A stretch of DNA of 64,000 nt from a virus: positions 6,280 through 70,279 of the IMG/VR virus record IMGVR_UViG_3300034374_010855; one strand, 5' to 3'. Both the position numbers and the translations under genes were made by a program. Numbering within the stretch: the first letter of the stretch is position 1; every line of letters starts with the position of its first letter. Below, piece after piece: positions 21,539-64,000 of this stretch. The notes under the pieces were generated by a model. It was not told the DNA's origin. It was given only the letters and a program-made list of their open reading frames with translations, and did not search any database.

Positions 21539-21784
21539 TTAAGGTCTAAACCCTTTAATCTTTTTTCGAGTAGCTGCACTTATTATTGTTTCTAGGAAAT
21601 TTATTCTTTCCTGTATTTTACTACTGACTATTTGTAATAAATCTAAATCATATTCTGAGTTTACCCAATTAATAAAATCATCACTACTAAAAGGAGCTTC
21701 ATAGTTATCTAAATCTACTTCTTCTTCTTGTAGTTTATTAAATAACTCATTTACTTGTTTCTCTGTCAGTATAATTTTAGACAT
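21539..21784 (-). CDS. Late protein with KIILTEKQ leader
   Basis: Minus-strand TATTTATT at 21796-21803; leader motif. Confidence 0.7.
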   Translation of the reverse strand: MSKIILTEKQVNELFNKLQEEEVDLDNYEAPFSSDDFINWVNSEYDLDLLQIVSSKIQERINFLETIISAATRKKIKGFRP

Positions 21785-23385: not shown

Positions 23386-23922
23386 ATGAAAAGAAAAGTA
23401 TCAAACAAAAACATTAGAAAAGTTTTAAGACAAATTATTAGTGAAGGTCACGATTCTTCTTATATGGCAAAATCACAATTATACAATATAGCAAGAAAAG
23501 CTCAAAGTATGTTTAATAAACTTGAAAAAGGTCAACCATTAGATGATTGGATGGAATCACATATAGCTAAAATGGACAGTATGATGGATAGTGTAAATGA
23601 TTCTTTCACATATGACCACCATGAAGGTAAAGGATGTCCTAAAGGGATGTACTGGTGTGAAAAAGACCAAATTTGTAAACCAGATTCACAAAATATGAAT
23701 TTAATTATCTCAACACAGGACATGATGGAACAAGACTTTACTGTAGAACCTCAAATACCAACTCAACCAAGAGAAAAAGATATTAGAGGAGTATTTGGTG
23801 ATAAATACGGTCCTTATATCCCTATGGATGTTTTAAGGTATATGAGAAAAAATCCAGAAGCTATAATTAAAAGATTGTATGGACTTTATGGTGATAAAAT
23901 TTATGATTATATGCCAAAATAA
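23386..23922 (+). CDS. Modular late protein with IRKVLR leader
   Basis: TATTTATA at 23374-23381; modules MAKSQL..WMESHI, CPKGMYWC..CKP, KYGPYIP.. Confidence 0.75.
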   Translation: MKRKVSNKNIRKVLRQIISEGHDSSYMAKSQLYNIARKAQSMFNKLEKGQPLDDWMESHIAKMDSMMDSVNDSFTYDHHEGKGCPKGMYWCEKDQICKPDSQNMNLIISTQDMMEQDFTVEPQIPTQPREKDIRGVFGDKYGPYIPMDVLRYMRKNPEAIIKRLYGLYGDKIYDYMPK

Positions 23923-24219: not shown

Positions 24220-25665
24220 ATGAAAAAAAATTTAATTAACGAAGACATCAGAAAAATGATGGGACTTATTGATTACGATAGAGGTAAAACTTTAACAGAA
24301 AATAAGACTAGACAATATTTGTCTGAACAAAATGAGGATGATGTTTTTATTTCTCTCAAAAATGAATTAAGTAGAGCCTCACAAGGACCGGGAACAAATG
24401 AGGATAAATTTCTAAATGCGTTTAACCTTATCCCTGACGATAGATTCGATGAAATGATAGAAAAATTAATGACCACTAAAATGGTTGGTGAAGATGGTCT
24501 AAATGAGTTAATTAAAAGTGAATTTGATAGGACAATACCTACTGATGTTGAGGTAATCCGAAAGATAAAGATTATTTTAGATAAAAAAAGTAATAAATAT
24601 ACTATTGATTTAACACCAGCACCAAATAAAAAATATCCGAGCAGTTTAAATATAATATCTAAAGGTGAAATGTCAAAAACAGAAGAACCTAGAGGTGAAA
24701 TGTCAAAAACAGAAGAACCTAGAGGTGAAGGTAAAGCTTCAGTAAGAAGAATATTTATAAAATATCCTTGTGTTCAAGACACAATAGACATTGCATCAGA
24801 AATTATTTACCCATATAAAGAAAAGGATAACCAAGTTCTTATAACATTAGAAAATGGGGACAAGATGTTAGTTAGTACAGCTGGAAAATATGTAGCTATA
24901 ATTGGTGGTAATAAAAGTTCCGGTACTATAGAATGTGAAGGTGACCTTACTCTTGATGATGAAGAATTAACTTTGTCTGAATCAAGATATATTTTTGAAC
25001 AAACTTTCGGTTCAATTAAATTAATTCCAAAATCTGAAGTTGCTGGTAAAGAGGTTACAAAAGGAACAAGTGGTCCTTCGGGAACAAGTGGACTTAGTGG
25101 TTCATTTACTAGAACAGATGTGACATATGCAGATATAGCTGCTGGTAAAGGTGAATTCAAAAAAGGTGATAAAGGTGAAGAAGTTAAAAAAGCACAAGAA
25201 GAATTAAATAAATCAAACAAAGTAAATCCTAAATTAAAAGTAGATGGTATGTTTGGCCCTAAAACTGAAACCGCTGTAGGCCAAGTTGGTGGTGAAAAAG
25301 TATTTAACAAAGCTGTAATTGATATGTTAAGTGGTCAATCAAAAGCTACTGGTGAAGCTGCTGGTGAAGAAGTCACACAACAAGAAGAAAAGAAATTAGA
25401 CATGGTTACTGTTGAGAAAGAAAAATCTGATGCAGAAACTTTAAAAAACCAAGTAAAAGATTTAGAACAGGCAATTAGTCAACAACCAACTAAAGAACAA
25501 TGTATGGATTTAATTGCTACAGCCGCTGCTGGTATTAAAAAAGGTGTTAGAGTAAGTGACACATCTACATTAGAACAATGTTATAATAGTTACAATTTTG
25601 GAAAAATTGGTGATGGTTCCAAAAAAGTTAAAAAAGCTTATGGCCTAAAAGGAAAAGGAAATTAA
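24220..25665 (+). CDS. Late protein with annexin-like repeat, peptidoglycan-binding domain and C-terminal domain shared with 38168
   Basis: LSRASQGPGTNEDKF; FKKGDKGEEVKKAQEEL..VDGMFGPKTETAV (PG_binding_1-like); 30-bp tandem duplication at 24664-24723. Confidence 0.7.
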   Translation: MKKNLINEDIRKMMGLIDYDRGKTLTENKTRQYLSEQNEDDVFISLKNELSRASQGPGTNEDKFLNAFNLIPDDRFDEMIEKLMTTKMVGEDGLNELIKSEFDRTIPTDVEVIRKIKIILDKKSNKYTIDLTPAPNKKYPSSLNIISKGEMSKTEEPRGEMSKTEEPRGEGKASVRRIFIKYPCVQDTIDIASEIIYPYKEKDNQVLITLENGDKMLVSTAGKYVAIIGGNKSSGTIECEGDLTLDDEELTLSESRYIFEQTFGSIKLIPKSEVAGKEVTKGTSGPSGTSGLSGSFTRTDVTYADIAAGKGEFKKGDKGEEVKKAQEELNKSNKVNPKLKVDGMFGPKTETAVGQVGGEKVFNKAVIDMLSGQSKATGEAAGEEVTQQEEKKLDMVTVEKEKSDAETLKNQVKDLEQAISQQPTKEQCMDLIATAAAGIKKGVRVSDTSTLEQCYNSYNFGKIGDGSKKVKKAYGLKGKGN

Positions 25666-27887: not shown

Positions 27888-28348
27888 ACGTTACCCCAAG
27901 AAATATTTTTTATTTTAATTTTTCTTTCATTGTTCCACGTTATACGTGTAGATATTCCGAACAACTTTAAATAGTTAGCGATTTCGTTTTTAATATTATT
28001 ACGTATATGGTCTCTAATTTTTTTGTTATGTTCACGACCCCACACAATATTATAAAGATTAATAGTGTTTCTTTTAACAACAGCAACCTCTTCTATAGGT
28101 GAAAGAATTATAGGATTACCCCAACCATTTTTATGAGTAATTTTACCAGAAACCACAAGATTAACATATAATTCATTAAAACTAGAACGATTTATTGGAT
28201 TTTCATCAAGCCATTTTTCACACGAAACACCAATTCTTTGAATTCTAATTTTAACATCCACACCTTCATTTCTACCTTCAGTTATGGTGTTAAGTGTGAA
28301 TACTTTTTTTTTGATTATTTTTGTAATTTCTTTAGGTAGTGATTTCAA
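27884..28348 (-). CDS. Hypothetical early protein
   Basis: TTG start; TTTG/TATCTTTG promoter at 28407-28380. Confidence 0.65.
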   Translation of the reverse strand: MKSLPKEITKIIKKKVFTLNTITEGRNEGVDVKIRIQRIGVSCEKWLDENPINRSSFNELYVNLVVSGKITHKNGWGNPIILSPIEEVAVVKRNTINLYNIVWGREHNKKIRDHIRNNIKNEIANYLKLFGISTRITWNNERKIKIKNISWGNV

Positions 28349-28456
28349 TTTATTCGTATTATTTTATTAATTGATAACACAAAGATAATTAAAAATATCA
28401 TAACAAAAAATAAAAGAGTAATTAATTTATATTTATTATTATAGAAAACAATTAGC

Positions 28457-29872
28457 ATGAAAATTAAATTATCAGAAGAACAATATAAAGCATTAATTAA
28501 TGAAATTGGTGGTTATGATGACCCTATTATTGGTATGCAAGATGAATCGTCTATAATTAAACAAATTTTGGAGGCTCATACACATTTAAAACAAGGTATG
28601 GATATACTTACAAGATTAATACCTGGTATTATAGTTCAAGATAGGTTAAGGTCTGAATTAAGTTATGTTAGAAACCAATTAGTTGACCCAATGAATGAAT
28701 TTAATGGTCTTTTGAGAAGGATTATGGGTAATCAAGGTCAAGGACATGAAATAGATAGAGAGTTAGACGAATCAAAAAAAAAAAGTAAGAAGAAAAAAGA
28801 CGCGTGTTATTACAAAGTAAAAAGTAGATATAAAGTCTGGCCTTCTGCTTATGCATCGGGTGCTTTAGTTAAGTGTAGAAAAGTAGGTGCTAAGAACTGG
28901 GGTAATTCAACCAACGAATCAGAAGAAATCCAAGAAAAATGGTCCAAATCAGAAAGAGAAAAAAGGGCAAAAAATTGTGATAACCCGAAAGGATTTACCA
29001 TGCAACAATTTTGCAAGAATCAGAAAACTAGGTCAAAAGAAGGTGAAAAATTAAATGAAAGAAAACTAACTTCAAAACCTAGTTCTGAAACAAGTTTAAG
29101 AGATTGGTTCAAAAGAAAGGGCGCTAAAGGTAGTACTGGAGGTTGGGTAGATTGTAATTCACCTGACGGAAAAGGTGGTTACAAATCTTGTGGAAGACAA
29201 GAAGGTGAAAAAAGAAGTAAATATCCAGCTTGTAGACCTACTCCAAGTGCTTGTAAAAAATATAAAAAAACTAAAGGAAAGTCTTGGGGTAAAAAAGCTT
29301 CTAAAAATGAATCTATATCTGAAGGTTTACAATATCATATAAATAATAATATTCCGTTAGTTGAAAACATTTATAGATGGGGGTCAGAGGGGTTTTTTAA
29401 TTTAATCAATGAAACTAGAGAGTTATATTATAATGGTGATATTGAATTAAATTCTATAGATAAAGAATTAATTGAAACAAATATAGGTGAAAAAGCTATA
29501 TTTGAAAATAAGAAAGTTTGGTTAGATATTCCAATGGAAGACATTGAGTATTTAACAGAAGAAGATAAATTTAAAGGTAAAAAATCTGGTTCACCACAAA
29601 GAGACTCTTCAGGTGGCAAAGCCTATAAAGTTTATGTTGCTGGTTGTGCTAAGAAAACAGATACAAATCCAAGAGGTATTAAATTAATTAGATTTGGTTC
29701 GGGTGGTTTAAAAGCTAAATTAAATAACCCTGAAGCTAAAAAATCTTTTAACGCTAGACATGGATGTTCAGAAGGACGACATAATGATAAATGTAAGGCA
29801 GGTTATTGGTCATGTCGCCTCCCACGTTACGCTAAAGCGTTAGGACTTAGTGGAGGAGGCACATGGTGGTGA
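28457..29872 (+). CDS. Polyprotein-like late protein with several basic Cys-rich modules
   Basis: Leader KIKLSEEQY; modules DACYYKVKSRYKVWPSAYASG, CDNPKGF, LRDWF..GWVDC..CGR..YPACRP, FNARHGC..AGYWSCR. Confidence 0.75.
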   Translation: MKIKLSEEQYKALINEIGGYDDPIIGMQDESSIIKQILEAHTHLKQGMDILTRLIPGIIVQDRLRSELSYVRNQLVDPMNEFNGLLRRIMGNQGQGHEIDRELDESKKKSKKKKDACYYKVKSRYKVWPSAYASGALVKCRKVGAKNWGNSTNESEEIQEKWSKSEREKRAKNCDNPKGFTMQQFCKNQKTRSKEGEKLNERKLTSKPSSETSLRDWFKRKGAKGSTGGWVDCNSPDGKGGYKSCGRQEGEKRSKYPACRPTPSACKKYKKTKGKSWGKKASKNESISEGLQYHINNNIPLVENIYRWGSEGFFNLINETRELYYNGDIELNSIDKELIETNIGEKAIFENKKVWLDIPMEDIEYLTEEDKFKGKKSGSPQRDSSGGKAYKVYVAGCAKKTDTNPRGIKLIRFGSGGLKAKLNNPEAKKSFNARHGCSEGRHNDKCKAGYWSCRLPRYAKALGLSGGGTWW

Positions 29873-29873
29873 T

Positions 29874-30134
29874 ATGAGTTTCCCTTTTAAAGAACATATA
29901 AAAAACGGTTATCATATTAGAATATTCTCTGAGGATATAAAAGAAGATGAATTAGTTTGGCATAGAGATAAAGAAGACCGAATAGTTGAATCAGTAGGTG
30001 ATACAAATTGGGAGATACAATTAGATAATGAATTACCTAAATCACTTACAGAAACTATTTATATACCAAAAGAGACATACCATAGAGTAATAAAAGGTAG
30101 TGGTGAGTTAATAGTTAAAGTTAAAAAATTATGA
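29874..30134 (+). CDS. Cupin-like small protein
   Basis: WHRDKEDR..IYIPKETYHRVIKG. Confidence 0.7.
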   Translation: MSFPFKEHIKNGYHIRIFSEDIKEDELVWHRDKEDRIVESVGDTNWEIQLDNELPKSLTETIYIPKETYHRVIKGSGELIVKVKKL

Positions 30135-30778
30135 ATATTGTAATAAGTGAATCACAATATAAATTATTGTTAGAAGAAAATAATGAACTATTCAAAAGAG
30201 TTAAGTTACCATATGATTATAGTGACTTAAAAGAATTTGTTGGTCCAGAAACTATGTGGGAACATTACAATAGACACTATAAAGGTTATACTGATAAATT
30301 AAATGAATCTTTTTCACATAGAAAAAATCCTCCAACTGACATTTTAGCTATAATAAAAAATATAGATAAATACAATACTTTTGTTAGAGACAACGCTGGT
30401 GGATATTACAATCACAGTTTATTTTGGGATTACATTACACCAAAATCAACTAAACCATCTTTAGAACTTAGTAAAAAAATAGACAAAGATTTTGGTAGTT
30501 TATCTAAATTAAAAAAGGTTTTTAGTGAACAAGCTATTAAAGTCTTTGGTTCTGGATGGTGTTGGTTGGTATATAAAGATGGTAAACTAAAAGTTGTAAC
30601 TACACCTAATCAAGATAATCCATTGATGAGTGATTTGGGTAAACCCTTATTGGGTTTAGATGTTTGGGAACACGCTTACTATCTTAATTACATGTCTAAT
30701 CGTAAAAAATATATTAAGAATTTTTGGAAAGTTGTCAATTGGGATACTGTCTCTAAAGAGTTTAATTTGGTAGTTTAA
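30131..30778 (+). CDS. sod: Fe/Mn superoxide dismutase (Mn-type signature) with extra N-terminal leader
   Basis: LPYDY, H-x-x-x-H, GGYYNHSLFW, FGSGW, NQDNP, DVWEHAYY. Confidence 0.95.
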   Translation: MNIVISESQYKLLLEENNELFKRVKLPYDYSDLKEFVGPETMWEHYNRHYKGYTDKLNESFSHRKNPPTDILAIIKNIDKYNTFVRDNAGGYYNHSLFWDYITPKSTKPSLELSKKIDKDFGSLSKLKKVFSEQAIKVFGSGWCWLVYKDGKLKVVTTPNQDNPLMSDLGKPLLGLDVWEHAYYLNYMSNRKKYIKNFWKVVNWDTVSKEFNLVV

Positions 30779-30814
30779 TTTTTTTTACTTATCTTTGTAT
30801 TATAAAGAAAGTAT

Positions 30815-31096
30815 ATGACATTAAAAGAATTAAAAGAAGAGTGTAGAAAAAATGGATTAAAGGTTTCGGGGACTAAAGATGAGTTAATAGAAAGACTTAA
30901 AAAACCAACCGAAAAAGATATTTCAACGGATACAACAAAAAAATTTTTAACTATAGGGTTTAGACTAGGTGACCCTAAAAAAGAAAAATTAAAACGTTTA
31001 TTAGTTAAAGGTCTCGCTAAGTTTAAATATTATTCTTGTGATATATATTACTATCGTGTAGATAAAAAATCTTGGGTGGAAGTATTAAAATCTTAA
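30815..31096 (+). CDS. SAP-domain protein
   Basis: MTLKELKEECRKNGLKVSGTKDELIERL; TTTG(30766)/TATCTTTG(30790-30797) promoter. Confidence 0.85.
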   Translation: MTLKELKEECRKNGLKVSGTKDELIERLKKPTEKDISTDTTKKFLTIGFRLGDPKKEKLKRLLVKGLAKFKYYSCDIYYYRVDKKSWVEVLKS

Positions 31097-31189
31097 AAAA
31101 TATTATAAAATATTGACTTATCGTAATTTTTAATATATTTATCTTTGTCTTACCTAATAGGGTAAAACTTTATACTTTCCTCATTATAG

Positions 31190-31219
31190 AAAAAAAGGGA
31201 CTATTCGTCCCTTTTTTTT
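31190..31219. terminator. Bidirectional intrinsic terminator
   Basis: A7-GGGAC-TATTC-GTCCC-T8. Confidence 0.85.
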
Positions 31220-31302
31220 AGATACTTTCTCTCCTTTTTTTTAGTTTAATTTATTTAACTAGTTACATCTATAAATATCACTTAAAAAGTATAAAATTTA
31301 AT

Positions 31303-31699: not shown

Positions 31700-34309
31700 A
31701 TGCAAGAATATAAACCTAAAATACAAAAAGAGTTATTAGAACTTTATATTGAAAAATTTTGGCCGAGATGGAGAAGAGAATTGTGGAATAAAGCTTATCG
31801 GACATTTCATCCAACTACATATAGGTTGGGTTTTTCTACTCCCGAGGACAATTTTTCGGATACGTTGGAATTTTTGAGTGACGAAGTAGTATCTGAAGGT
31901 ACAAAATTAGGTTTACTTAATCCTGACACACTTAACAGTTTTCCTAAATTAAAAGGTAAATTGATTTTAAGTTTAGGAACTAATTTAGATTGGGTAAGTA
32001 GTATGTTACTTTATTCAGTAATATACGATTTAGTTATGGATTTTAGATGTTATAAAGGTGAGGAAGGTATTGACCCTAATTGTGAAGGAAGATTTATGGA
32101 TGATTTCAACTGTTTACAAGATATTTATGAAACATTGTATGATTTTATGTTGGAATTAGAGAATTTTGGGGTACCTGTTGGTGATTTAATTGGTAGTGAA
32201 AAATTAAAAAAAATACCATTAGTAAATAAAACAAAGTGTAAACATAAACATAGATATTTGAGGATTAGTCCACTTTATGTGAAGTGTCACACTTGTGGTG
32301 ATGAAATATACGAACCTTTAGAACTTGGAAAAACTTGGAGAGGTCTTAGTGTTGATGGTGAAGGAAATGTTGTAGATGATGAAGGAAATATAGTAGATTA
32401 TGAAAACACTAATGAATTATTACAAGAGGCATTAGAAGATGACCAACAGGTTAAATTTCTTTTAGATAATATAGATTTGGTTAAAATAATGAAAGGACCA
32501 GATTCTATACTTTTATCTGATTTTGTTGAGGGTTTACGTCAATGGTCTAAGTATAATCCAATAACAACTAATTTATCACCATTTTTAACTGACCCAGAAA
32601 CAATGTTTAAAGGTGAGTACGCGTCTGAGATAATGCAGTGGGCAACCGAAAATAATTCTTGGCCACCAAACTATAACGAATATTTTAAAAAACAAGAAGA
32701 CCCATTACCTTATCTTTGGTCTGTGAGACAAGAAGTTAGAGAAGCTATGACGAGAATGACTTTAAATTTCATGCAAGAAAATAATTTAGATATGGGTCTT
32801 GATAATGTTAACAAAATATTTAAAGAATTAGCAAGAAGATTATATCGTTTTATTTTATTTGGTCCTTATCTTAAAAAAGCTCAATCACGTTCACGTACAC
32901 AATTAGATGAAAATAATAAAATTAATCCAAAAGTATCTGTTGGTGACATAATACAACTATTGCACATGGAAGACTCTTACAATCCAGTTCCTATCGCTAC
33001 AAAAGGTATAGTTGTTGGTTTTGATAAAGACCCATGGGAAGATAGAATTTTAGTGAAATGGATTATAGATGATGATAAAAAAATATATAAAAACATACCA
33101 TTATATCCATCTATAGACGCTTATAGAATTGTTGGTAGTGATGAAATATTGAGTGAATCCACATTATTAAATGAAGGTGATGTACAAGAAATAAATTATA
33201 CTAGTTTTAGTGAACCTAAATTTTATGGTGGTAAAGGGTACATTTACTTTAAAACTAAAGATTTTAAATTACCAGAATCTGAAAAAATAATATTAATAGG
33301 TCCAAATGATAAAGATTATCCACAAATAAACATAGATGCTAGTGAAGTTACAAAAGGTAAATATGGTGGGTTACAAATTAATTACAATAGTAATACAAAA
33401 CAAGAAATAGATTTACTTTTTAGAGATAATTTAACGTCTAAGTCTGGTGAAAATAAGTGTGATTTTAGTTGGGTTCTAAACCCAAAGTATTGGTCTAATA
33501 CTTCATGGAAAAAAAGATTATTTAAGGTTATTTTAGATAGTTTAAAAGAGGTTTATAGTGAATATATTGCCCCAACAGGATTACCTACAACTAAACACAT
33601 TAAAAATGGATTTATTAATTTACCTGGAACTGATGCTTATGGAACAAATCATGGTTGGTCAATAATAAATTTCTTTTCAACTAACCCATTAGTTAGAAAA
33701 ATATTATTAAAAGAATTTGAAAACTTTGTAAATTCAGACACTAAACAACCTAAATCTGATAATTGTAGATTTAATATAGACGAATTTATAAAATGGGTGG
33801 ATGATGAAAAATATAATATTTTTGGTTTTGACACACCAACCTTTAAAGAAATGGTAAAAGTAAATCAATCTTCTTGGAAACGTGGAAATGAAAATGAACA
33901 AAAAGCTGCTAAATTTTTAATCGATTTATATGATGGTTGGGATATTATTTATGGTGGTGAACCTGGAATTTATAAAGACGCATTAGAAGGGTCAGATATA
34001 ATGATGATTGATAAAAAAAGTGGTGAAAAAATGAATGTTCAAGTTAAACCTTTATCTAATTCTAATGATGTAAATGAAAAAGATGGTAAATGGTGGGTTA
34101 AATCCGCTTGGTTAAAAAAATACCCTTTAAGTGTTACTCACTTATTATTTGGTCCATCTAAAGATGATAATAATACGGTATTTATATTTAAGAACGAAGG
34201 TCAAGAACCGACACATATGGATAAGAATGAATATATGGTATTTAATTCACCACCAATCAATTCAAAACAGATTAAAGAATCTACATATAGTTTATTCTGG
34301 AATATTTAA
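31700..34309 (+). CDS. Large modular late protein with DUF4314-like central domain and C-terminal PD-(D/E)XK-like domain
   Basis: VGDIIQLLHMEDSYNPVPIATKGIV..VKW; GNENE..GSDIMM..VQVKP; CHTC; TATTTATT at 31687-31694. Confidence 0.6.
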   Translation: MQEYKPKIQKELLELYIEKFWPRWRRELWNKAYRTFHPTTYRLGFSTPEDNFSDTLEFLSDEVVSEGTKLGLLNPDTLNSFPKLKGKLILSLGTNLDWVSSMLLYSVIYDLVMDFRCYKGEEGIDPNCEGRFMDDFNCLQDIYETLYDFMLELENFGVPVGDLIGSEKLKKIPLVNKTKCKHKHRYLRISPLYVKCHTCGDEIYEPLELGKTWRGLSVDGEGNVVDDEGNIVDYENTNELLQEALEDDQQVKFLLDNIDLVKIMKGPDSILLSDFVEGLRQWSKYNPITTNLSPFLTDPETMFKGEYASEIMQWATENNSWPPNYNEYFKKQEDPLPYLWSVRQEVREAMTRMTLNFMQENNLDMGLDNVNKIFKELARRLYRFILFGPYLKKAQSRSRTQLDENNKINPKVSVGDIIQLLHMEDSYNPVPIATKGIVVGFDKDPWEDRILVKWIIDDDKKIYKNIPLYPSIDAYRIVGSDEILSESTLLNEGDVQEINYTSFSEPKFYGGKGYIYFKTKDFKLPESEKIILIGPNDKDYPQINIDASEVTKGKYGGLQINYNSNTKQEIDLLFRDNLTSKSGENKCDFSWVLNPKYWSNTSWKKRLFKVILDSLKEVYSEYIAPTGLPTTKHIKNGFINLPGTDAYGTNHGWSIINFFSTNPLVRKILLKEFENFVNSDTKQPKSDNCRFNIDEFIKWVDDEKYNIFGFDTPTFKEMVKVNQSSWKRGNENEQKAAKFLIDLYDGWDIIYGGEPGIYKDALEGSDIMMIDKKSGEKMNVQVKPLSNSNDVNEKDGKWWVKSAWLKKYPLSVTHLLFGPSKDDNNTVFIFKNEGQEPTHMDKNEYMVFNSPPINSKQIKESTYSLFWNI

Positions 34310-35348: not shown

Positions 35349-35495
35349 ATGGATATATATGAAATAATTGAATTGTTGGATGAAGCAATCAACGATAAAG
35401 ATTGGGATACTGTACAACTATGTAAGGATAAGTTGGAAGATATTTATAATTTGAATGATGGTACACTAGACGGATATTATCATTCAGAAGATTAA
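35349..35495 (+). CDS. 48-aa acidic micro-protein
   Basis: Manual translation MDIYEIIELLDEAINDKDWDTVQLCKDKLEDIYNL.. Confidence 0.5.
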   Translation: MDIYEIIELLDEAINDKDWDTVQLCKDKLEDIYNLNDGTLDGYYHSED

Positions 35496-36406
35496 TTTAT
35501 CTTTTCCATCCATAAATTAATTGAATTGTTTGTCCCAAAAATACCATTCATCACAATATTATTTAATTCACCATCAATTATAGAACTTAAAGATACTTGA
35601 CCAGAATAATTACCACCAATAGTAATACATTCGTAAAGTGTTAAGTTATATAGGTTATTACCGACATTGTTAGATAATGAATAAGTGTTAGTATTTAAAC
35701 CATTTATTGAATATGCTACACCACTTATGAAATTAATGGTATCGTTTGGATAATAAGGTGTTGTACCGTTATCATAACGAGTTATCACCCAAGTAGTACC
35801 ACTTAATTGTAAATGACCTGGAATATCTTCAATATTTATAGTGATGGTACCACCAAAAGTATAATCTAATCTACTTTCAAAATCACAATCATTACAACTA
35901 TAACCATCTCTAACAAATGTTAATACTGTATAATAATGGTAATTATCACCATCATAAGATTCATTAGATTCATATATTTTAACTTGTAAAATGTTTTCAT
36001 CTAGATAAATTACACCTAAGTGTCTAACAGACCCATATGGTGGTATACCTAATAATGTATAATTTTTTGCAACACCACTACCACTACTATTATATTCGTA
36101 AGTGTTCCCATTATTTAAAACAAATATACCATCATTAAAATACCAAGTAGTCACACCTAATTCAATGTTATCAATGTCTATTTGTGAACCACCAAATATA
36201 TCTAAATTAGAAATATCTTGTGAATTATCAAAATGGTTATAATATACCATTTCACCATTTGTCAAATTTTCTACATATACATTACCACTATTTAAAACCC
36301 ACAAAGTATTCTCAATTGTTGGGTAACCCTCAGTCAATTCATATTTCTCACAACTACTAAAAATTAGTGTTATTAATAACAGATAAGTAATAATTTTATT
36401 ATACAT
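35492..36406 (-). CDS. Lipoprotein with two beta-rich (lipocalin-like) repeats
   Basis: Lipobox FSSC-EK; two L/I-x-x-T-x-W-V-L/I starts; promoter TTTG(36484)/TATATTTG(36460-36453). Confidence 0.72.
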   Translation of the reverse strand: MYNKIITYLLLITLIFSSCEKYELTEGYPTIENTLWVLNSGNVYVENLTNGEMVYYNHFDNSQDISNLDIFGGSQIDIDNIELGVTTWYFNDGIFVLNNGNTYEYNSSGSGVAKNYTLLGIPPYGSVRHLGVIYLDENILQVKIYESNESYDGDNYHYYTVLTFVRDGYSCNDCDFESRLDYTFGGTITINIEDIPGHLQLSGTTWVITRYDNGTTPYYPNDTINFISGVAYSINGLNTNTYSLSNNVGNNLYNLTLYECITIGGNYSGQVSLSSIIDGELNNIVMNGIFGTNNSINLWMEKIN

Positions 36407-36505: not shown

Positions 36506-36829
36506 ATGGGTAATTCGTTTAAATTAAGTTTATATCTAGAACATATCGTAAATGATATAGTTAATAAACGAAAACTGCATTATACAGAAGAAGGGCTTAA
36601 AAAAAATATATTTACCTTTCTTGATACTATTTATGATAATAGGGGTGGTTTTAATTTAACAGAAGCAAATAATTTAATTAAAGGAGGTTTTAAAGAACAA
36701 TTAATTGAAGAAGCTATTTGTCAAATGTCGGATGATGAAGATTATTTAACTTCAACAATCAATAAAAAAATTAACACTATCTCAAAACAATATATAAAAG
36801 AATGGATAAACAAAAAAATAAGTAGATGA
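36506..36829 (+). CDS. Hypothetical late protein
   Basis: Start revised to the ATG after TATTTATA (36485-36492). Confidence 0.6.
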   Translation: MGNSFKLSLYLEHIVNDIVNKRKLHYTEEGLKKNIFTFLDTIYDNRGGFNLTEANNLIKGGFKEQLIEEAICQMSDDEDYLTSTINKKINTISKQYIKEWINKKISR

Positions 36830-37158
36830 AAAAAGTAATAAGACTTACGGAATCAGAATTAGTTTCAATAATAGAAAATTTAACATTAGGTTATGAATTG
36901 GAAGAAAAAAAAGGAACTTCTTCGATGAAAAATAAAACTAAACCTAAATCCACAGATGCTAATGCTAATCCAATAGCGAAAAAAACCTTTAATGATATTG
37001 TTGGTCATTTAGAAGCTACTAAAGGTGCTTTTAGTTTAAGAAATAAAAGTACTACAGAAAATTTAGAAGATGATAAACTAAAAAAGACTTGGAAGTGGAA
37101 AACTAACGATGGTAAAGTTAATGTTGTGGTTAGTGTAGACGTTAAAATGAATAGTTAA
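36826..37158 (+). CDS. Late protein with KVIRLTESEL leader
   Basis: Leader motif; overlaps the upstream stop codon. Confidence 0.72.
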   Translation: MKKVIRLTESELVSIIENLTLGYELEEKKGTSSMKNKTKPKSTDANANPIAKKTFNDIVGHLEATKGAFSLRNKSTTENLEDDKLKKTWKWKTNDGKVNVVVSVDVKMNS

Positions 37159-37160: not shown

Positions 37161-38117
37161 ATGAAAAAAGTAAAAGTAACAGAAACTGAATTAATTACAA
37201 TCATTAAAACAATGATTAACGAACAAGAAGAAGGTAGTGAAGGTGGTGGTACTACTGGTGCTAAGACTTGGGAAAGTGGTTTAACTAGAGGACCCGCTAA
37301 TCCAGCAGGTAGTATTGGTAAATGGGCTGACACTTATTCTATCAGTAGAGGTAAAGCTAATCCATTATGGGAAGATGAAGATTATGAAGAATATGATGAT
37401 GATGAAGTTGATATAGATTTATTAAATGAAAGTAAATGGTACAACACATTTCTTGATTTTGTTGGTGTTGTAGACCCAACTGGTGTTGCTGATGCCATTA
37501 ATGCTGTTTCATATTTTAGACAAGGTGATATTTTATATGGTATATTAAGTTTGATATCCTTAGTTCCTTATGTTGGAGATGCTATAGCTAAACCATTTAT
37601 TGTCATAATGAAAAGTGGTAAAATCAACACAAAAATAATTAATGCTGGATTAAAAAGTGGTAATGCATCCAAGATAACTGCTGAAATGGGAAAAACAAAA
37701 GCTGGTAAAGCGGTGTTAGAAACTATGAAAAATCCAACAACACAAAATTTCTTAGGGAATATATTAGGTAAAATAAGTAAAATACCAGGATTCAAAAATT
37801 TCTCAAAAGATGCTAAAACTTATCTTAATCTATTTACACAAGCAGCGAAACAAACTGGTAAAATCAAAGTGTTTAGACAAAGTGGTGGTTTGTTGACTAG
37901 AATGCAAAGAAAAGGACTACTAAATAGAACAAAATTATATAGTAAATTTATAAATTATCTTATGGGTACTGGTGTTGGTGCTGCAGCAATAGAAGGTATG
38001 GGTGAAAATAAATTAAATAGTAAATTTGAAGAATTTTTAAATTCACAAGATGGGATGGATTTCTTTAATAGTATGAATAAACAAGACCAAGGTGATTTTG
38101 TTGATGCTTTAAAATAA
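37161..38117 (+). CDS. Late protein with leader and pre-toxin TG (PT-TG)-like hydrophobic hairpin
   Basis: LDFVGVVDPTGVADAINAVSYFRQGDILYGILSLISLVPYVGD directly after LLNE. Confidence 0.65.
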   Translation: MKKVKVTETELITIIKTMINEQEEGSEGGGTTGAKTWESGLTRGPANPAGSIGKWADTYSISRGKANPLWEDEDYEEYDDDEVDIDLLNESKWYNTFLDFVGVVDPTGVADAINAVSYFRQGDILYGILSLISLVPYVGDAIAKPFIVIMKSGKINTKIINAGLKSGNASKITAEMGKTKAGKAVLETMKNPTTQNFLGNILGKISKIPGFKNFSKDAKTYLNLFTQAAKQTGKIKVFRQSGGLLTRMQRKGLLNRTKLYSKFINYLMGTGVGAAAIEGMGENKLNSKFEEFLNSQDGMDFFNSMNKQDQGDFVDALK

Positions 38118-40291: not shown

Positions 40292-41116
40292 ATGTCTAAA
40301 TTACAATTTAAAGAATCTGAATTAGTTTCATTTATTGAAGACCTAGTAAATGAAGAGAGAACTACCCTTTCTGAATCAAAAGAAAGAAAAATAAATATAT
40401 GGGTAGATAGGTTTGAAAGAAAAAATAAGAATAATTCTCCAGAACTTGTTTTTGAAAATTTCTCTAGAGAGATAAACAAACTTTCTAGAAATGGTATAAG
40501 CACTGATGATTTATCACTTTATTTAACAAAAAACAAAAAAATAATAAATGAACAAGCAGCTTTTACAATGTCTCAAAACCAAGGAATTTTTGGGACAATA
40601 TGGGAAACTATTCGTGAAGGATTATATAGATGGCTTTTAGGTTTTATGGGAATAAAAGATGGTGAATTAAAAGAAGTTTTGGCTAACACTTTGGGTAACG
40701 TACCATTCACAGATTTACCTAAATTAATGAATTGTAATTTTTTAGCACCAATCCTAACTAAAGGTATTTTGGAATATGGTATAAGAAGAATTAATAGGTC
40801 AATTACTGGTATGTCTGGAGGTTTCGAACAAATTTTTGGTAATTCGATTACTAATTTAGGTGACAACACAGAATTCTATCAAGACTTAGAATCTCAAGTT
40901 AGAGACTTTTTATGTGGTGCTTTAGGTAAGAAAAAAACTCAGGTACAAAATACTTTAGATGATGTGGAAGAACAAAACAAAGAAATGTGGGGTTCTGGTA
41001 GAAAAGAAAAAGGTGGTGAAGTGCCACCAGAAAGTTCTGGTCAATCAGTATCGTCTGGTTTGAATGATATTGCTAAAAAGTATTTTACTCAATTTATGCA
41101 AAATTTAGGAAGATAA
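40292..41116 (+). CDS. Late protein with KLQFKESEL leader
   Basis: Leader motif; LSE and INE sites. Confidence 0.72.
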   Translation: MSKLQFKESELVSFIEDLVNEERTTLSESKERKINIWVDRFERKNKNNSPELVFENFSREINKLSRNGISTDDLSLYLTKNKKIINEQAAFTMSQNQGIFGTIWETIREGLYRWLLGFMGIKDGELKEVLANTLGNVPFTDLPKLMNCNFLAPILTKGILEYGIRRINRSITGMSGGFEQIFGNSITNLGDNTEFYQDLESQVRDFLCGALGKKKTQVQNTLDDVEEQNKEMWGSGRKEKGGEVPPESSGQSVSSGLNDIAKKYFTQFMQNLGR

Positions 41117-41164: not shown

Positions 41165-41170
41165 ATTTTG

Positions 41171-41559
41171 TGGAGGTGTCGGGTTTCGAACCCGAGTCTT
41201 GCTCGCAATATCCATAAAGGACTACACGCTTAGGTCAATACTGATTCTCAATATTCCGAAATAGTCAGTTTGTTCTTCACCATCGTAAACTTGACAACCA
41301 ATGGACGACTCGATTTTGGGTTCAGTCGTTTTTTCACCACAACAACGGACTTCTGTTCAAAGGTATATGTCCTGACCGACCCGTTTCACTGTCACGTCTT
41401 ACGCTACAGCTACTTCTTCAGTTCGTAGAAGACCTACAGCCTGAAGTTTTGCGAATGTTTCGCCATTTAAAAAATTGTATCCATAGATTAAAGTGATAGG
41501 AAACCTCTCACTGCGTGCCCCGTATGACTATCTACGCCAATCAATTCCAGTTCACCCCC
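41171..41559 (-). ncRNA. ssrA: tmRNA; predicted tag (A)GETFAKLQAVGLLRTEEVAVA
   Basis: 5' GGGGGTG pairs with 3' CACCTCC-A including G3-U70; T-arm TCGGG-TTCGAAA-CCCGA; tag ORF 41464-41399 after UAAAU; promoter TATATTTG at 41635-41628. Confidence 0.93.
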
Positions 41560-57239: not shown

Positions 57240-57248
57240 TTTAGTAAA

Positions 57249-57579: not shown

Positions 57580-59388
57580 ATGGCAGAACAAAATAGAATG
57601 ACGATATTTCAAAGATTAAACAATCTTTTTGGTGCTGAGGGGCCTCAGTCACCTAAAAGGTCATATAACTTTGATAAAAAAGATATATTAAAAACAACTT
57701 CTAAGGTTGATTACGAAAGAACTAAATTAGAATTACAACAAGGTCAATATTTGGCCAACCAATGGCAAAAAATAGAATCCCAACTTTATTCACAAGCAGT
57801 TTATTATGAACCTACTAGATTGGCTTCATATTATGATTATGAATCTATGGAATTTACACCTGAAATATCAGCAGCTTTGGATATTATTTCAGAAGAAGCG
57901 TGCACAATTTCAGAAAGAGGTTATATGTTAAACATTTATTCTGAATCTAAAAGAATAAAATCCATACTTGGTGATTTATTCAATAATGTGTTAGATTTAG
58001 AATCAAATTTACCTATGTGGGTTAGGAACACATGTAAATATGGTGATAATTTTGTTTACCTTAAAATAGACCCAGAAAGGGGTATTGTTGGTGCTAGTCA
58101 ATTACCTAATATAGAAATAGAGCGTATTGAGAAAGGAATGAATACGTTTGAAACAAGAACTGGAGATAAGGAAGAACGTGAAGTTAAGTTTATTTGGAAA
58201 AATAAAAATATGGAGTTCAATACATGGGAAGTTGCTCATTTCAGATTATTAGCTGATGATAGAAGATTACCTTATGGTACTTCTATGTTAGAAAAATCTA
58301 GAAGGATTTGGAAACAACTTTTATTAGCTGAAGACGCGATGTTAATCTATAGAACTTCTAGAGCTCCAGAACGTAGAGTTTTTAAAGTTTATGTTGGTAA
58401 TATGGAAGACCAAGATGTTGAAGCTTATGTACAACGTGTAGCTAATAAATTTAAAAGAGACCCAATAGTTGATAGAGATACTGGTAATGTTGATTTACGT
58501 TATAACCAAATGGCGGTTGACCAAGACTTCTTTATACCGGTTAGGGATTTAGCTGCACCTAATCCAATAGACACATTACCTGGAGCACAAAACTTAGCTG
58601 AAATTGCTGATATTGAATATATTCAGAAAAAATTATTAGCAGCACTAAGAATACCAAAAGCTTTTTTAGGATTTGAGGATGTAGTTGGTGAAGGTAAGAA
58701 TTTAGCTATTCAAGATATTAGATTTGCTAGAAGTATTAATAGAATACAAAAATCAATTATTCAAGAATTAAATAAAATAGCGATTATACATTTGTATATG
58801 TTAGGATTTGAAGATGAGTTGGGTAACTTCACACTAGGATTAACTAACCCATCTACACAGTCTGAACTATTAAAAATAGAACAGTGGAAAGAAAAAATCA
58901 CACTTTATAAAGATGCTGTTACGGACCCAGGTTCTGGTATCCAAGCTGTGTCTGCAACTTGGGGTAAAAAACACATACTTGGTTTCTCAGATGAAGAAAT
59001 TAAATTAGATTTACAACAACAACGTATAGAAAAAGCTGTTGGTGAAGAACTTAATCAAACTGCTACAATAATTAAGAACACTGGTATATTTTCTAATATA
59101 GATAAATTATATGGGGAGATGGAACCAGATGGTGGTGGAGCTGAAGAAGCAGCTGAAGGTGGTGAAATTGAATCTCCTGCAGATACAGGTTTAGAAACTG
59201 GAGTTGAAGAAACCCCACCTGAGACTGGTGAAGCTGGTGCAGGGTTAGACTTAGCTTCTATCAGTAAATCTAAATTACCCTTAATATTAGAAACTATTGA
59301 TAATAATAATTTTGAATTAAATTTATCAAAAGGTAAAGATAAATTAGATGAAGTTAGTGAAAAGTTAGATAGTTTATTAAATGAATAG
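57580..59388 (+). CDS. Portal protein (T4 gp20-like)
   Basis: PEISAALDI, EDAMLIYRTSRAPERRVF, DFFIPVR, IDTLPG, DIRFAR. Confidence 0.95.
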   Translation: MAEQNRMTIFQRLNNLFGAEGPQSPKRSYNFDKKDILKTTSKVDYERTKLELQQGQYLANQWQKIESQLYSQAVYYEPTRLASYYDYESMEFTPEISAALDIISEEACTISERGYMLNIYSESKRIKSILGDLFNNVLDLESNLPMWVRNTCKYGDNFVYLKIDPERGIVGASQLPNIEIERIEKGMNTFETRTGDKEEREVKFIWKNKNMEFNTWEVAHFRLLADDRRLPYGTSMLEKSRRIWKQLLLAEDAMLIYRTSRAPERRVFKVYVGNMEDQDVEAYVQRVANKFKRDPIVDRDTGNVDLRYNQMAVDQDFFIPVRDLAAPNPIDTLPGAQNLAEIADIEYIQKKLLAALRIPKAFLGFEDVVGEGKNLAIQDIRFARSINRIQKSIIQELNKIAIIHLYMLGFEDELGNFTLGLTNPSTQSELLKIEQWKEKITLYKDAVTDPGSGIQAVSATWGKKHILGFSDEEIKLDLQQQRIEKAVGEELNQTATIIKNTGIFSNIDKLYGEMEPDGGGAEEAAEGGEIESPADTGLETGVEETPPETGEAGAGLDLASISKSKLPLILETIDNNNFELNLSKGKDKLDEVSEKLDSLLNE

Positions 59389-60979: not shown

Positions 60980-61696
60980 ATGGAAATATTGAAACCAGGA
61001 AAGGTAGGTACGGGTATTTTAATAGAATATGACGCTGGTCACGTATCACCCACTAACACTAATAACAAAAAAGTTATTAAAGAAATGACAGATAGGTCCA
61101 TCCAAGAAGGACCCATAATTTTCCATGCTATACTACAAAAAAGTGGTGTAGAAAATAGAAACGGAAGAGTTTATCCAGAAAACATATTAAAAAGAGAAGT
61201 AGAAAACTATCAGAAATTAATAGAGAAAGGTAGTGCTTTATCAGAACTAAATCACCCAGAATCATCATTAGTCGATTTGGAAAGAAGTTCTCACAGAGTT
61301 TTAGAGACTTGGTGGGATGGTAATATTCTTATGGGTAAATTAGAAATCTTAACATCACCCGCATACCACCAAACTGGTGTTATATCTTGTGTGGGTGATA
61401 TCGCAGCTAATTTATTGAGACACGGAGTAACGTTAGGTATTTCATCAAGAGGTGTCGGTTCATTAGAAAGAGAGAATGGTCAAAATGTAGTACAAGATGA
61501 TTTTGAATTAATTTGTTTTGACTTAGTTTCATCACCATCAACCCCAGGAGCTTATTTATTTAAAAATTTAGAAGATAAAGAACTTTATGATGAATCTTTA
61601 AATCACGATAAACCACAAGAACAAATAACAACTCAAGCTTTAAGTGGTTCATTAAGATTAATGGATAAGTTAGATAGTTTCTTATCGGGATATTAA
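60980..61696 (+). CDS. Prohead core protease (T4 gp21-like)
   Basis: NRNGRVYP, ELNHP, GISSRGVGS, FDLVSSPS; TATTTATA at 60959-60966. Confidence 0.95.
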   Translation: MEILKPGKVGTGILIEYDAGHVSPTNTNNKKVIKEMTDRSIQEGPIIFHAILQKSGVENRNGRVYPENILKREVENYQKLIEKGSALSELNHPESSLVDLERSSHRVLETWWDGNILMGKLEILTSPAYHQTGVISCVGDIAANLLRHGVTLGISSRGVGSLERENGQNVVQDDFELICFDLVSSPSTPGAYLFKNLEDKELYDESLNHDKPQEQITTQALSGSLRLMDKLDSFLSGY

Positions 61697-61798: not shown

Positions 61799-63277
61799 AT
61801 GGCAGATAACAAATCAGTCTTAGAACAGGCCTTACTAGAGGCACAACAGCTAGAAGAAGCTGTTAAATCTAATGCAAAAGAAATACTTGCAGCTACTATG
61901 AAGCAAGAAATTGAAGAGTTAGTTAAAGAATCATTAAATGAACAAGAAGAAGATGACTTTGTCGGTACTAGTGAAGAAGAAGTCTCTGTTGAGTTCGATG
62001 ATGATGATTTTGATGACGAAGAATATGAAGACCAAGAAGAAGAGGAATTAATGATTCCTGCAGGAGAAGAAGCAATGGTATCTATGGAAATGGATACGGA
62101 TGAACCAACACTCGACCTAACACAAGCATCTGACGAAGAAGTAATGAAAGTTTTCAAAGCTATGGGAGCTGAAGATGGAATCGTTGTTACACAAGATGGA
62201 GACACAATTGAACTTGAAGACCAGGGAACTGGTACTGAATATAAAATTGAATTGGCCGAGAGTAAATTTAAGAATAATCTTCTAATTAACGAAGGTTATG
62301 ATAATGATTCAATGGAGTACGTTGATGATGAAGAAATTATGGAAATGGAAAAAGATTTCGAAGAAGGTTGGAAAAAAGGTATGTATGAAATGAAAATGAA
62401 AGACATGTATGAAATGGATGACGAAATGTCAGAAATGAAAATGAAAGGTATGTATGAAATGGAAATGGATGATGAACCTATTTATGAAATTTCTTTAGAG
62501 GACGAAATGGATATGGATGAAGAAGACATGGACATTAAGGAATTACAAGAAATGGGAGATATGTCTTACGAAGAAATGGAAGAAGGTGATTATGGTTTTA
62601 AACGCCCTATGGGTCGTTCAAAACAAGGTTACCTAGATAGAGAGGATGAAATGTTGGGTGGTGAACACGGACATGAAGACTCTGAATTTTCATTAAAAGA
62701 TAGAGCTAGAATGGCTAGAGGTACTAGAAAATTTGACCAAGAAATGGGAGAAGCTTCAAGAACTTATGGTTTTGGTTCTAAATCTGGAAGAGGACTTAGA
62801 AAAGGATTTACTAACAACAGAAATTTAGACTTCCCAATTAATGAATCATCTAGAGAATCTATTAACAAGATACTTAAAACAGCTAAACAACTACAAACAG
62901 AGAATCAACATTTCAGACAGAAAAATAAAGAATATAGACAAGCTCTTAAAGTATTCAGAGATAAATTAAATGAAGTAGCTGTATTTAACGCTAATTTGGC
63001 TTATTCAACTAAATTATTCACTGAACACACAACAACTAAAAAAGAGAAAGTTAACATTCTTAGACGTTTTGATGGCGTTAAAACTCTGAATGAAAGCAAA
63101 AACTTGTTCAATACATTAAATTCAGAATTTAATTCTAAAGTTAATAAGTTGAATGAGTCGGTTCAAAAAACCATTACTAAAACCCCTTCTGGTGGTTCTT
63201 CAGTCAATTTGATTGAAAGTAAAACTTATGAAAGTCCTCAAATTACTAGGATGAGAGAGATTATGAATAAGTTATAA
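61799..63277 (+). CDS. Prohead scaffolding/core protein (gp22-like)
   Basis: Between protease and MCP; acidic with coiled-coil C-terminus; numerous LNE/INE sites; TATTTATA at 61752-61759. Confidence 0.82.
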   Translation: MADNKSVLEQALLEAQQLEEAVKSNAKEILAATMKQEIEELVKESLNEQEEDDFVGTSEEEVSVEFDDDDFDDEEYEDQEEEELMIPAGEEAMVSMEMDTDEPTLDLTQASDEEVMKVFKAMGAEDGIVVTQDGDTIELEDQGTGTEYKIELAESKFKNNLLINEGYDNDSMEYVDDEEIMEMEKDFEEGWKKGMYEMKMKDMYEMDDEMSEMKMKGMYEMEMDDEPIYEISLEDEMDMDEEDMDIKELQEMGDMSYEEMEEGDYGFKRPMGRSKQGYLDREDEMLGGEHGHEDSEFSLKDRARMARGTRKFDQEMGEASRTYGFGSKSGRGLRKGFTNNRNLDFPINESSRESINKILKTAKQLQTENQHFRQKNKEYRQALKVFRDKLNEVAVFNANLAYSTKLFTEHTTTKKEKVNILRRFDGVKTLNESKNLFNTLNSEFNSKVNKLNESVQKTITKTPSGGSSVNLIESKTYESPQITRMREIMNKL

Positions 63278-63315: not shown

Positions 63316-64000
63316 ATGGGAGCATTATTAGAATCTGGTATGGTCGGAAACATTGGTTTAAAACACCTTAAAGTTATCCGCGAAGATACTATTGGAAAAT
63401 GGAACAAGCTTGGGTTCCTTAACGGATTAAATGGGCACACAAAAGAAAACATCGCTCAATTATACGAAAATCAAGCAACACACTTAATTAACGAAGCTAC
63501 GTCATCTGACGCTTCAGGTTCATTCGAAACGGTTGTTTTCCCAATCATTCGTAGAGTATTCTCTAAGTTATTGGCAAACGATATCGTTTCTGTACAAGCT
63601 ATGAACTTACCTATCGGTAAATTGTTCTACTTTGTACCTAAAATTTCACAAAGAGTTGCTGTTAACGGTAGCCCTCAAGCAGGACCTGCAGGTGGTATGG
63701 AAGGACACACTAACCCAATCGGAGGTGGTTTTTCAAATGATACTACTACTTTTGACACAGTAAACCTTTATGACGCATTCTACGAAGGTAACGGAAGAGA
63801 AGGTTTATTTGACCGTTCAAAAGGAGCTTATTCAGCTTTCACTTACGGAACTACTATTCAAGTATGGAACACAACTGGTAACGCATTAGTACCAACTTCA
63901 ACTAATAACTTAGGTTCTCTTGCAGCATCTGGTAGTACAACACTTTGTACAAATGGTGGTTTAAGGTCAGCTATTGTATCTTTAACTGGTTTCCAATCTG
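63316..64000 (+). CDS. Major capsid protein (T4 gp23-like), 5' part; runs off window edge
   Basis: Not in ORF track; MGALLESG..LYENQATHLINE-ATS..FPIIRRVF..ANDIVSVQAMNLPIGKLFY. Confidence 0.95.
   Translation, partial: MGALLESGMVGNIGLKHLKVIREDTIGKWNKLGFLNGLNGHTKENIAQLYENQATHLINEATSSDASGSFETVVFPIIRRVFSKLLANDIVSVQAMNLPIGKLFYFVPKISQRVAVNGSPQAGPAGGMEGHTNPIGGGFSNDTTTFDTVNLYDAFYEGNGREGLFDRSKGAYSAFTYGTTIQVWNTTGNALVPTSTNNLGSLAASGSTTLCTNGGLRSAIVSLTGFQS

Follow-up and report, generated by a model that had tools for sequence, protein, structure and literature searches.

A viral superoxide dismutase bearing a modular N-terminal leader, a candidate capsid-targeting propeptide

The 64-kb stretch of DNA analysed here (the window; G+C content 29.7%) is part of one 70,279-bp virus contig, the IMG/VR record IMGVR_UViG_3300034374_010855, and it encodes an Fe/Mn superoxide dismutase (SOD) whose enzyme core is preceded by a short N-terminal leader. 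The leader is a protein-level N-terminal module carried by non-homologous cargo proteins of the same phage. Judging from sequence, it is probably a capsid-targeting propeptide resembling the capsid-targeting sequences (CTSs) of the T4 phage, which would be removed after a glutamate residue to give a virion-packaged SOD. We consider that the SOD of this large uncultured phage is probably packed in virions because its tag is common to unrelated phage proteins and resembles the capsid tags of T4. The features on which this reading rests are the following.

30131..30778, + strand: Fe/Mn superoxide dismutase gene, 215 amino acids (aa), comprising the leader, the junction and the enzyme
30131..30175, + strand: leader, SOD residues 1-15, MNIVISESQYKLLLE, seen by the profile, the AlphaFold2 (AF2) model and BLASTP
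30167..30178, + strand: candidate protease site L13-L14-E15-E16 (hydrophobic-x-Glu)
28457..29872, + strand: 471-aa open reading frame (ORF) with the class A leader MKIKLSEEQYKALINE, the first gene in the SOD gene string

Approximately 19 residues precede the SOD core, and no cellular or solved SOD among those compared has them. The phage homologs (30 records of a phage collection) align to the SOD only from residue 21 or later, the first Pfam domain begins at residue 24, and in the 60 PDB matches listed the alignment starts at query residue 16-25. In the AF2 model, leader residues 1-20 lie outside the SOD fold at a predicted local distance difference test score (pLDDT) of 56-61, with a short helix of low confidence at residues 7-14. 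The presence of an extra leader ahead of the core, proposed in the initial annotation, is thus borne out by the alignments. The same annotation described the leader as nearly identical to that of the unrelated ORF 28457. BLASTP between the two proteins agrees with this: residues 1-16 of one aligned to residues 1-16 of the other with 9/16 identical (E 0.019 in a single comparison), and nothing above noise was found beyond them.

This type of leader, designated class A, was present at residues 3-17 in at least 8 otherwise unrelated ORFs of the contig. Besides the SOD and ORF 28457, it was seen in the following ORFs.

36826..37158, + strand: 110-aa ORF, class A leader MKKVIRLTESELVSIIEN
37161..38117, + strand: 318-aa ORF, class A leader MKKVKVTETELITIIKTMINE with a Gly-rich linker after it
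40292..41116, + strand: 274-aa ORF, class A leader MSKLQFKESELVSFIED
21539..21784, − strand: 81-aa ORF, class A leader MSKIILTEKQVNELFNKLQE

A regular expression for the leader gave 8 matches in 21,209 aa (97 ORFs), every one starting at residue 6-8, compared with 0.14 matches overall and 0.006 at N-termini in shuffled sequences. As the expression was written post hoc after inspection, this test is partly circular, and a leave-one-out test was therefore run. For this, a profile of 15 columns was built from the 7 other leaders with the SOD excluded from training. SOD residues 3-17 scored 10.6 bits and were the top non-training window, a score reached by 0 of 18,253 windows; the runner-up was an internal window at 9.7 bits, and the best other N-terminal window scored −1.3. 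It should be noted that the maxima of shuffled proteomes were 8.1 ± 2.8, so the score of the SOD lies within the shuffled range and is convincing only together with its N-terminal register. The window-trained profile was also used to scan G004, a relative of 297,623 bp that is 93% complete. The top 6 of its 77,610 windows sit at ORF residues 3-5, and 7 of the 20 top windows start no later than residue 8, where 3.3% would be expected (P = 2e-6).

A likeness due to chance or AT-rich composition, or a mis-called SOD start with the true start downstream, is extremely unlikely. Lys/Glu/Ile/Leu-rich N-termini are indeed frequent in this genome, codon 13 of the SOD is TTG, and the leave-one-out score taken alone would suit such an explanation. 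However, the profile replicates at the N-termini of the independent genome G004, the SOD ATG overlaps the upstream stop codon, the extension is conserved among orthologs down to 65% identity, and the next in-frame ATG is that of M42, inside the fold.

The cargo parts (residue 26 onward) of 14 leader proteins were mutually unrelated, save for the pair 24220 and 38168, which excludes paralogy as the source of the leader likeness. Identical leader residues were encoded by the same codon in 70/127 cases, and the nucleotide identity of the leaders was 44-71%. These values and the varied synonymous codons exclude a gene conversion or recombination cassette and indicate that the leader is conserved at the protein level. 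Two other kinds of leader were noticed in the window. Class B leaders, of the types ..IRKVLRE.. and ..IRKVLRQIISE.., are found in the ORFs 22552-23361 and 23386-23922 (+), and a further type, ..L.EE[IL]....L..YD.., in proteins of 481 aa (24220-25665) and 703 aa (38168-40279), both on the + strand.

To place the extension among SODs, we compared the N-termini of the best 120 of 8,000 scored homologs. Nine or fewer residues precede the LPY core in 33 of the 120 (typically MAFELPK), 21 have signal-peptide-like N-termini and 52 have hydrophilic extensions; the core motif is missing in the remaining 14, mostly fragments. The source-named Bacteroidota SODs P0029, P0037, P0061, P0078 and P0115 have either no extension or a signal peptide. 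Cellular SODs start approximately 7 residues before LPY, in keeping with the initial statement that cellular Fe/Mn enzymes begin close to this motif. The nearest of them, from Bacteroidota, are approximately 48-53% identical to the viral SOD and have both of its domains and its invariant ligands, but they start 7 residues before LPY or bear hydrophobic signal peptides.

A quick maximum-likelihood tree of the enzyme core (103 rows, unrooted, with Shimodaira–Hasegawa-like approximate likelihood-ratio (SH-aLRT) support; 18 rows with a missing or short core were dropped) separated these Bacteroidota SODs from the viral one by a branch of support 96, which divides 51 extension-bearing rows from 52 cellular-type rows. 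Each of the 51 viral-side SODs is extended at its N-terminus, apart from 2 labelled as having none, which are truncated gene calls; the extensions are of at least three types. A peptide-pattern scan with two clade-specific patterns, run on one genome for each of 185,579 prokaryote species and reaching close relatives only, detected no relative. The extension is thus confined to the viral clade, and no cellular SOD with the same extension was found among the 120 best homologs, in the tree or in the species scan.

Close relatives of the SOD are encoded at 12 viral-contig loci. Those of L001-L003 are 80% identical to it and carry class A leaders (MKIRITESQYNLILEG...), while those of L005-L011 are 67-71% identical and carry the class B leader (MRNLIKKILNENIIAEA...), like the window ORFs 22552 and 23386; ATG-only ORF calling left the start of L004 unsettled, and L012 is truncated by the end of its contig. 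In the tree, SODs of class A and class B and the leaderless fusion P0004 are intermingled within a single subclade (support 99). Likewise, the ORF 28457-type cargo in L006 bears a class B-type leader. These data indicate that the leader class was exchanged (A vs B) on a nearly constant enzyme. Since N-terminal extensions run through the whole viral SOD clade and leader classes were exchanged as the clade evolved, the leader was not recently acquired by this phage. The proposal of a host-derived enzyme that had acquired the leader is only partly supported: a host origin is plausible because the nearest cellular SODs are those of Bacteroidota, although the tree is unrooted, whereas the leader is no recent add-on.

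More distant viral SODs, here called type C, have extensions of 38-50 aa (MIFKKINQRINLIESKL...SIISEIKK...), and they are very abundant, with at least 590 viral-contig stretches out of 600 candidates encoding a relative. At the type-C loci L036, L041, L046 and others, the frame ahead of the extension stays open over approximately 122 codons, giving ORFs of 360-363 aa (e.g., L036:5626 onward). These open frames are either real fusions, in which the extension is internal, or in-frame upstream genes. The fused homolog P0020 has an HExxH-containing domain (...AHEWIHEY...) upstream of its extension.

The junction between leader and enzyme was examined for a possible cleavage site. In the 11 viral SODs that carry a class A or class B leader, E15 is the sole invariant residue among the first 20 positions. 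Residues 14-17, just after helix 7-14, form the least confident segment of the AF2 model, with pLDDT below 50. An [LIV]xE motif whose Glu stands 6-13 aa ahead of the core is present in 50/52 SODs with hydrophilic extensions and in 0/21 of the signal type, these being related sequences. Relatives in which the upstream 86-aa ORF is fused in frame to the SOD retain IIEEE (P0001) or INE (P0004) at the domain/SOD junction. We also applied a pattern derived from T4 and independent of the window, namely hydrophobic residues at −6, −3 and −2 and Glu at 0. It occurs in the first 26 residues of 12/97 contig ORFs, including the SOD (Glu16), compared with 2/89 and 3/67 in internal control windows (P = 0.008).

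The systems that this arrangement resembles most closely are the internal proteins (IPs) and Alt of T4. According to the available text of PMC9026906 and PMC5694885, these proteins have N-terminal propeptides of 7-20 residues (the CTSs) that target them to the prohead core, and in IPIII residues 4 and 7 matter in targeting and residues 8 and 10 in processing. The accessible part of PMC9026906 adds that the IPs have CTSs of 10-19 aa, that gp21 cuts after L/I-x-E and that a CTS by itself packages foreign proteins. In the T4 record, IPII and IPIII begin MKTYQEFIAE|A, and the propeptide of IPI has 19 residues ending ...ITE|A. As with IPI, IPII, IPIII and Alt, a short N-terminal peptide (10-19 aa in T4, approximately 15-20 here) stands on otherwise unrelated proteins of one phage and ends in hydrophobic-x-Glu, and a gp21-type protease of the S77 family accompanies a gp20/gp23 head. 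In both systems the cargo is diverse and fast-evolving, Alt being an example of an enzyme cargo in T4. Unlike the T4 peptides, the leaders described here show no significant similarity to MKTYQEFIAE, and the hydrophobic spacing alone is common; they are longer, have an extra (L/I)-(S/T)-E-x-(E/Q) core and fall into several classes per genome. Their cargos, known from sequence alone, are larger enzymes (SOD, M23/lysozyme, kinase-like), whereas those of T4 are small basic proteins.

A near-canonical T4 tag was seen elsewhere. Beside a homolog of the 28457 cargo in Synechococcus phage S-H25, a 108-aa ORF (L117:2319-2645) starts MKSYKQFMSES, which is almost the CTS of IPII/IPIII; from this similarity, T4-like cyanophages may use a near-canonical CTS. 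The cyanophage/T4 reviews PMC2984593 and PMC3037559 contained no mention of 'internal protein', 'capsid targeting' or 'superoxide'.

The region 55515-63999 encodes the terminase, the portal protein, small ORFs, the protease, a scaffold-like ORF and the capsid protein in the T4 order. Its main features are given below.

57580..59388, + strand: T4 gp20-type portal protein (Portal_T4, E 6.8e-79)
60980..61696, + strand: T4 gp21-type prohead protease (Peptidase_S77, E 4.5e-25)
61799..63277, + strand: acidic scaffold-like ORF, 492 aa, at the place of gp22 (assignment from position and composition)
63316..63999, + strand: gp23-type major capsid protein, truncated at the end of the window, with the candidate sites LINE60|A and GSFE71|T

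The scaffold-like ORF contains 15 [LI]xE sites (3.0 per 100 aa) and ORF 59413 contains 10 (4.1 per 100 aa), compared with 1.57 per 100 aa for the contig. The S77 protease of the window has L-I-E at residues 14-16; the available text of PMC9026906 gives LIE-9 for T4 gp21. The site LINE60|ATSS of the capsid protein, identical in G004, was considered as a cut of this protease, but it was dropped as support because the known cut of T4 gp23, LTE65|A, aligns with GSFE71|T, 11 residues downstream of LINE60|A. The S77 protease was also present in 4/5 records of relatives having class A/B SODs, the miss being a 34%-complete fragment, and in 2/4 type-C records.

By its portal protein, the phage is nearest to the isolates Microcystis phage Mel-JY01, Flavobacterium phage immuto and Rhodothermus phage RM378 (32-39% identity). 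Immuto encodes an S77 protease and ORFs starting MKKSELVKLIKEEL... and MKKSQLREIIRKEL...; no SOD was found in it. Since the protease, a homolog of the 86-aa ORF and leader-like ORFs (among them immuto35A_175 and _176) are present, this cultured phage suits a bench test of the leader mechanism. A tblastn search of the leader protein 38168-40279 against isolate phages gave no match, and no cultured carrier of this SOD came up.

The genes upstream of which the word TATTTATW occurs were also examined, as one copy stands ahead of the SOD gene string.

28430..28437, + strand: TATTTATT, a TATTTATW copy 20 nt upstream of ORF 28457

TATTTATW is present in 63 copies in the window, compared with 45.3 ± 7.0 in shuffled sequences, none of 100 shuffles reaching 63. 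Twenty-one of the 63 copies lie at most 50 nt upstream of a same-strand gene start, where approximately 2.1 would be expected by area, and the reverse-complement control gave 6 copies near gene starts. The word stands upstream of 8/12 leader genes, 7/16 genes of the structural block and 6/57 others, that is, 15/28 leader or structural genes vs 6/57 others (P = 3.4e-5), with both gene sets being our own designation. The 4 leader genes without their own copy directly follow a gene having one, as the SOD gene does behind 28457. Copies 11-47 nt upstream of many structural and leader genes include those at 55504, 60959, 61752, 42545, 38146 and 28430. Judged by its placement, TATTTATW is a candidate late promoter, and the copy at 28430..28437 likely starts the transcription unit 28457 → 29874 → SOD. 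We take the word to be the reverse complement of the T4 late-promoter word TATAAATA.

In the mechanism that we propose, the SOD precursor would be made with an N-terminal propeptide of 15-20 residues acting like a T4 CTS and would be co-expressed with the late structural genes. The propeptide would dock the precursor onto the prohead core, where the gp21-type (S77) protease would remove it after the conserved Glu, E15 or E16. The mature SOD, approximately 4-5 residues longer than a cellular SOD, would stay inside the capsid and be delivered with the DNA at the next infection. Its role in the virion could be the protection of DNA or the countering of reactive oxygen species (ROS) at entry.

Several observations weigh against this proposal. 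The score of 10.6 bits obtained by the SOD in the leave-one-out test is barely above the 9.7 bits of an internal chance window. The motif [LI]xE is common, and the contrast in its occurrence between leader proteins (13/14) and the others (23/83) is partly circular, as the leader set was picked partly by eye. The conserved Glu-x-Lys-Lys could be a structural feature of the SOD clade and not a cleavage site. In G004, the enrichment of the T4-derived pattern is weak (29/319 vs 16/289, P = 0.06). The capsid protein has two candidate maturation sites, so the specificity of the protease is not cleanly readable from it, and the scaffold-like ORF 61799..63277 had no family match in Pfam or PHROGs. Two of the 4 type-C records have no S77 protease, though these records are incomplete (46% and 71%). 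Finally, P0004 has no N-terminal leader but only a Zn-ribbon-like start, and at many type-C loci the extension is internal to a longer open frame.

The leader could also be a genuine module with another purpose, such as recruitment to the tail or baseplate, docking to Hsp70/ClpB, or service as an oligomerisation or regulatory helix, in which case the SOD might not be in the particles. Modularity and a late-type motif are silent on the destination of the protein, and the phage itself encodes Hsp70 and a ClpB-like protein adjoining the structural genes. We nevertheless regard this as rather unlikely, since the length of the leader, its N-terminal place, its hydrophobic-x-Glu end, the junction Glu and the S77 protease fit a T4 CTS specifically, and the literature search turned up no known tail- or chaperone-targeting tag of such a form.

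The cargo of the leader proteins bears on the remaining explanations. In G004, a leader protein of 458 aa combines Peptidase_M23, PG_binding_1 and Phage_lysozyme2 domains (L018:2878-4254, −), and a leader-bearing AAA_33/zeta-like kinase adjoins the SOD. The leader proteins of the window include a TseH-like hydrolase (3152-4228, +) and the PG_binding_1 protein of 24220-25665. Going by their domains, these cargos would fit the kinds of enzymes expected to act at entry. Several of them act on or bind peptidoglycan, and some of the nearest cellular SOD relatives bear signal peptides, both of which would suit a leader acting as a late-infection export signal that directs the SOD, the peptidoglycan hydrolases and further proteins into the periplasm. 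Such export is very unlikely, however. The leader is hydrophilic, and as it has no 10-residue stretch free of D/E/K/R, the SOD was classed with leader class A and not as signal-like. Meanwhile, other ORFs of the same contig, e.g., 4225-4830 and 35492-36406, use ordinary hydrophobic or lipoprotein-type signals, and we know of no export pathway that uses such a tag.

It is likewise improbable that the SOD is an ordinary auxiliary enzyme limiting oxidative stress in the infected cytoplasm, with an extension that tunes translation, folding or stability. SODs are indeed encoded by further large phages, among them PA5oct-like Pseudomonas phages and Vibrio phage 2.275.O, and A-rich MKK-type starts are common in this AT-rich genome. 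This explanation nevertheless fails to account for the leader on unrelated proteins, for the class swaps with a kept junction Glu and for the peptidoglycan-hydrolase cargos.

Three further systems were compared with the packaging proposed here. The giant phages SPN3US, phiKZ and 201phi2-1 are also jumbo phages and, as described in the available part of PMC5694885, pack many proteins into the head, with processing after Glu by a protease related to gp21; in SPN3US, the paralogs gp53 and gp54 begin with the same 15-mer, which is called 'reminiscent' of CTSs. The propeptides of these giant phages, however, are mostly longer than 100 residues with the motif S/A-x-E, whereas the phage studied here has short leaders and a Pfam-detectable classical T4-type portal and capsid protein. 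The chlorovirus PBCV-1 likewise encodes a SOD. The available text of PMC7019647 describes it as late-expressed, virion-packaged and thought to lower superoxide early in infection. The PBCV-1 enzyme belongs to an unrelated family (Cu/Zn), its virus infects eukaryotes and has another capsid lineage, and that text mentions no targeting leader. In the search results for SOD in phage virions and jumbo-phage virion proteomes, we found no report of a bacteriophage virion SOD.

Mitochondrial MnSOD belongs to the same enzyme family as the viral SOD, and its precursor carries a cleavable targeting peptide at the N-terminus; the PDB matches include entries titled 'Superoxide dismutase [Mn], mitochondrial'. 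In that case, however, the targeting machinery and the destination are different, and the tags have no sequence relation.

A wider reading can be put forward only tentatively. Uncultured T4-headed jumbo phages, which probably infect Bacteroidota, may load capsid enzymes via interchangeable leaders of at least three classes and inject them. The loaded enzymes would include the SOD, M23/lysozyme and NlpC-like wall hydrolases, a zeta/AAA_33-like kinase and others, and the SOD, which occurs with such extensions in at least 590 viral-contig stretches, would be the first antioxidant enzyme delivered by a phage particle, pre-empting an oxidative burst or ROS-linked defence at entry. If this were true, the capsid-targeting principle of T4 would reach a large, environmentally abundant group of uncultured jumbo phages, and a sequence rule (the leader classes and the junction Glu) would predict packed and injected proteins from genomes alone. 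An antioxidant enzyme would join the proteins delivered by phages, a case paralleled only by giant viruses of eukaryotes, and the leaders could become packaging tags in the engineering of Bacteroidota phages.

The enzyme itself and its nearest gene have the features listed below.

30200..30433, + strand: Sod_Fe_N domain (Pfam), residues 24-101, containing the invariant H45, H49, Y53 and H95
30458..30757, + strand: Sod_Fe_C domain (Pfam), residues 110-209, containing the invariant Q161, D177 and H181
29874..30134, + strand: 86-aa ORF that lacks a leader and matches nothing in Pfam or PHROGs

Both domains scored well above their gathering cut-offs: Sod_Fe_N (PF00081) at E 5.3e-13 and 49.7 bits vs 27, and Sod_Fe_C (PF02777) at E 5e-41 and 139.3 bits vs 20.9. 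H45, H95, D177, H181, Y53 and Q161 are invariant across 35 aligned SODs; we take the first four to be the metal ligands (His, His, Asp, His) and Y53 and Q161 to be the active-site Tyr and Gln. The best PDB match had E 8.7e-57, and the best matches are mostly annotated Mn. The AF2 model has a mean pLDDT of 88.4, with 88-98 in the core. Because of both Pfam domains, the invariant ligands and the confident model of the core, the enzyme looks intact and functional. PHROGs held no family for the SOD or for most of the leader proteins.

ORF 28457-29872, the 86-aa ORF and the SOD gene make up one tight string: the SOD start ATG overlaps the stop codon of the 86-aa ORF (ATGA), and the latter begins one base past the stop codon of ORF 28457-29872. 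Proteins homologous to the 28457 cargo are encoded by T4-like cyanophages and by the Melnitz, immuto and Tenacibaculum phages. The 86-aa ORF is the domain fused to the SOD in P0001 and P0004, and its homolog in immuto lies at L118:3024-3281. Its invariant residues are W29, H30, D32, E34, D35, R36, Y69, H70 and R71, and its product is a possible SOD partner. The interval 28300-31300 contained no intrinsic terminator, and sigma-70-type promoters around the SOD gene showed no excess (22 vs 17.5 ± 4.0 in shuffled sequences). Downstream of the SOD, an 869-aa ORF (31700-34309, +) is 34% identical over 199 aa to part of L018:4258-15066 (−), a 3,602-aa ORF that adjoins the SOD region in G004.

The ClpB-like AAA+ gene mentioned above (45237-47278, −) is split by a frameshift into 428 + 236 aa just past the second Walker A region, and its G004 ortholog is a single ORF of 682 aa. 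Recoding, a pseudogene or an assembly error could each account for the split. Next to this gene is a full Hsp70 gene (47471-49336). The window also encodes a phage transfer-messenger RNA at 41168-41559 (−), for which ARAGORN gave the tag peptide AKLQAVGLLRTEEVAVA and Rfam RF00023 gave 74.7 bits vs the gathering score of 47 with the full model covered. Finally, a tRNA-Arg gene (anticodon TCT) was detected at 17968-18042 (−) by both ARAGORN and Rfam (73.1 bits).

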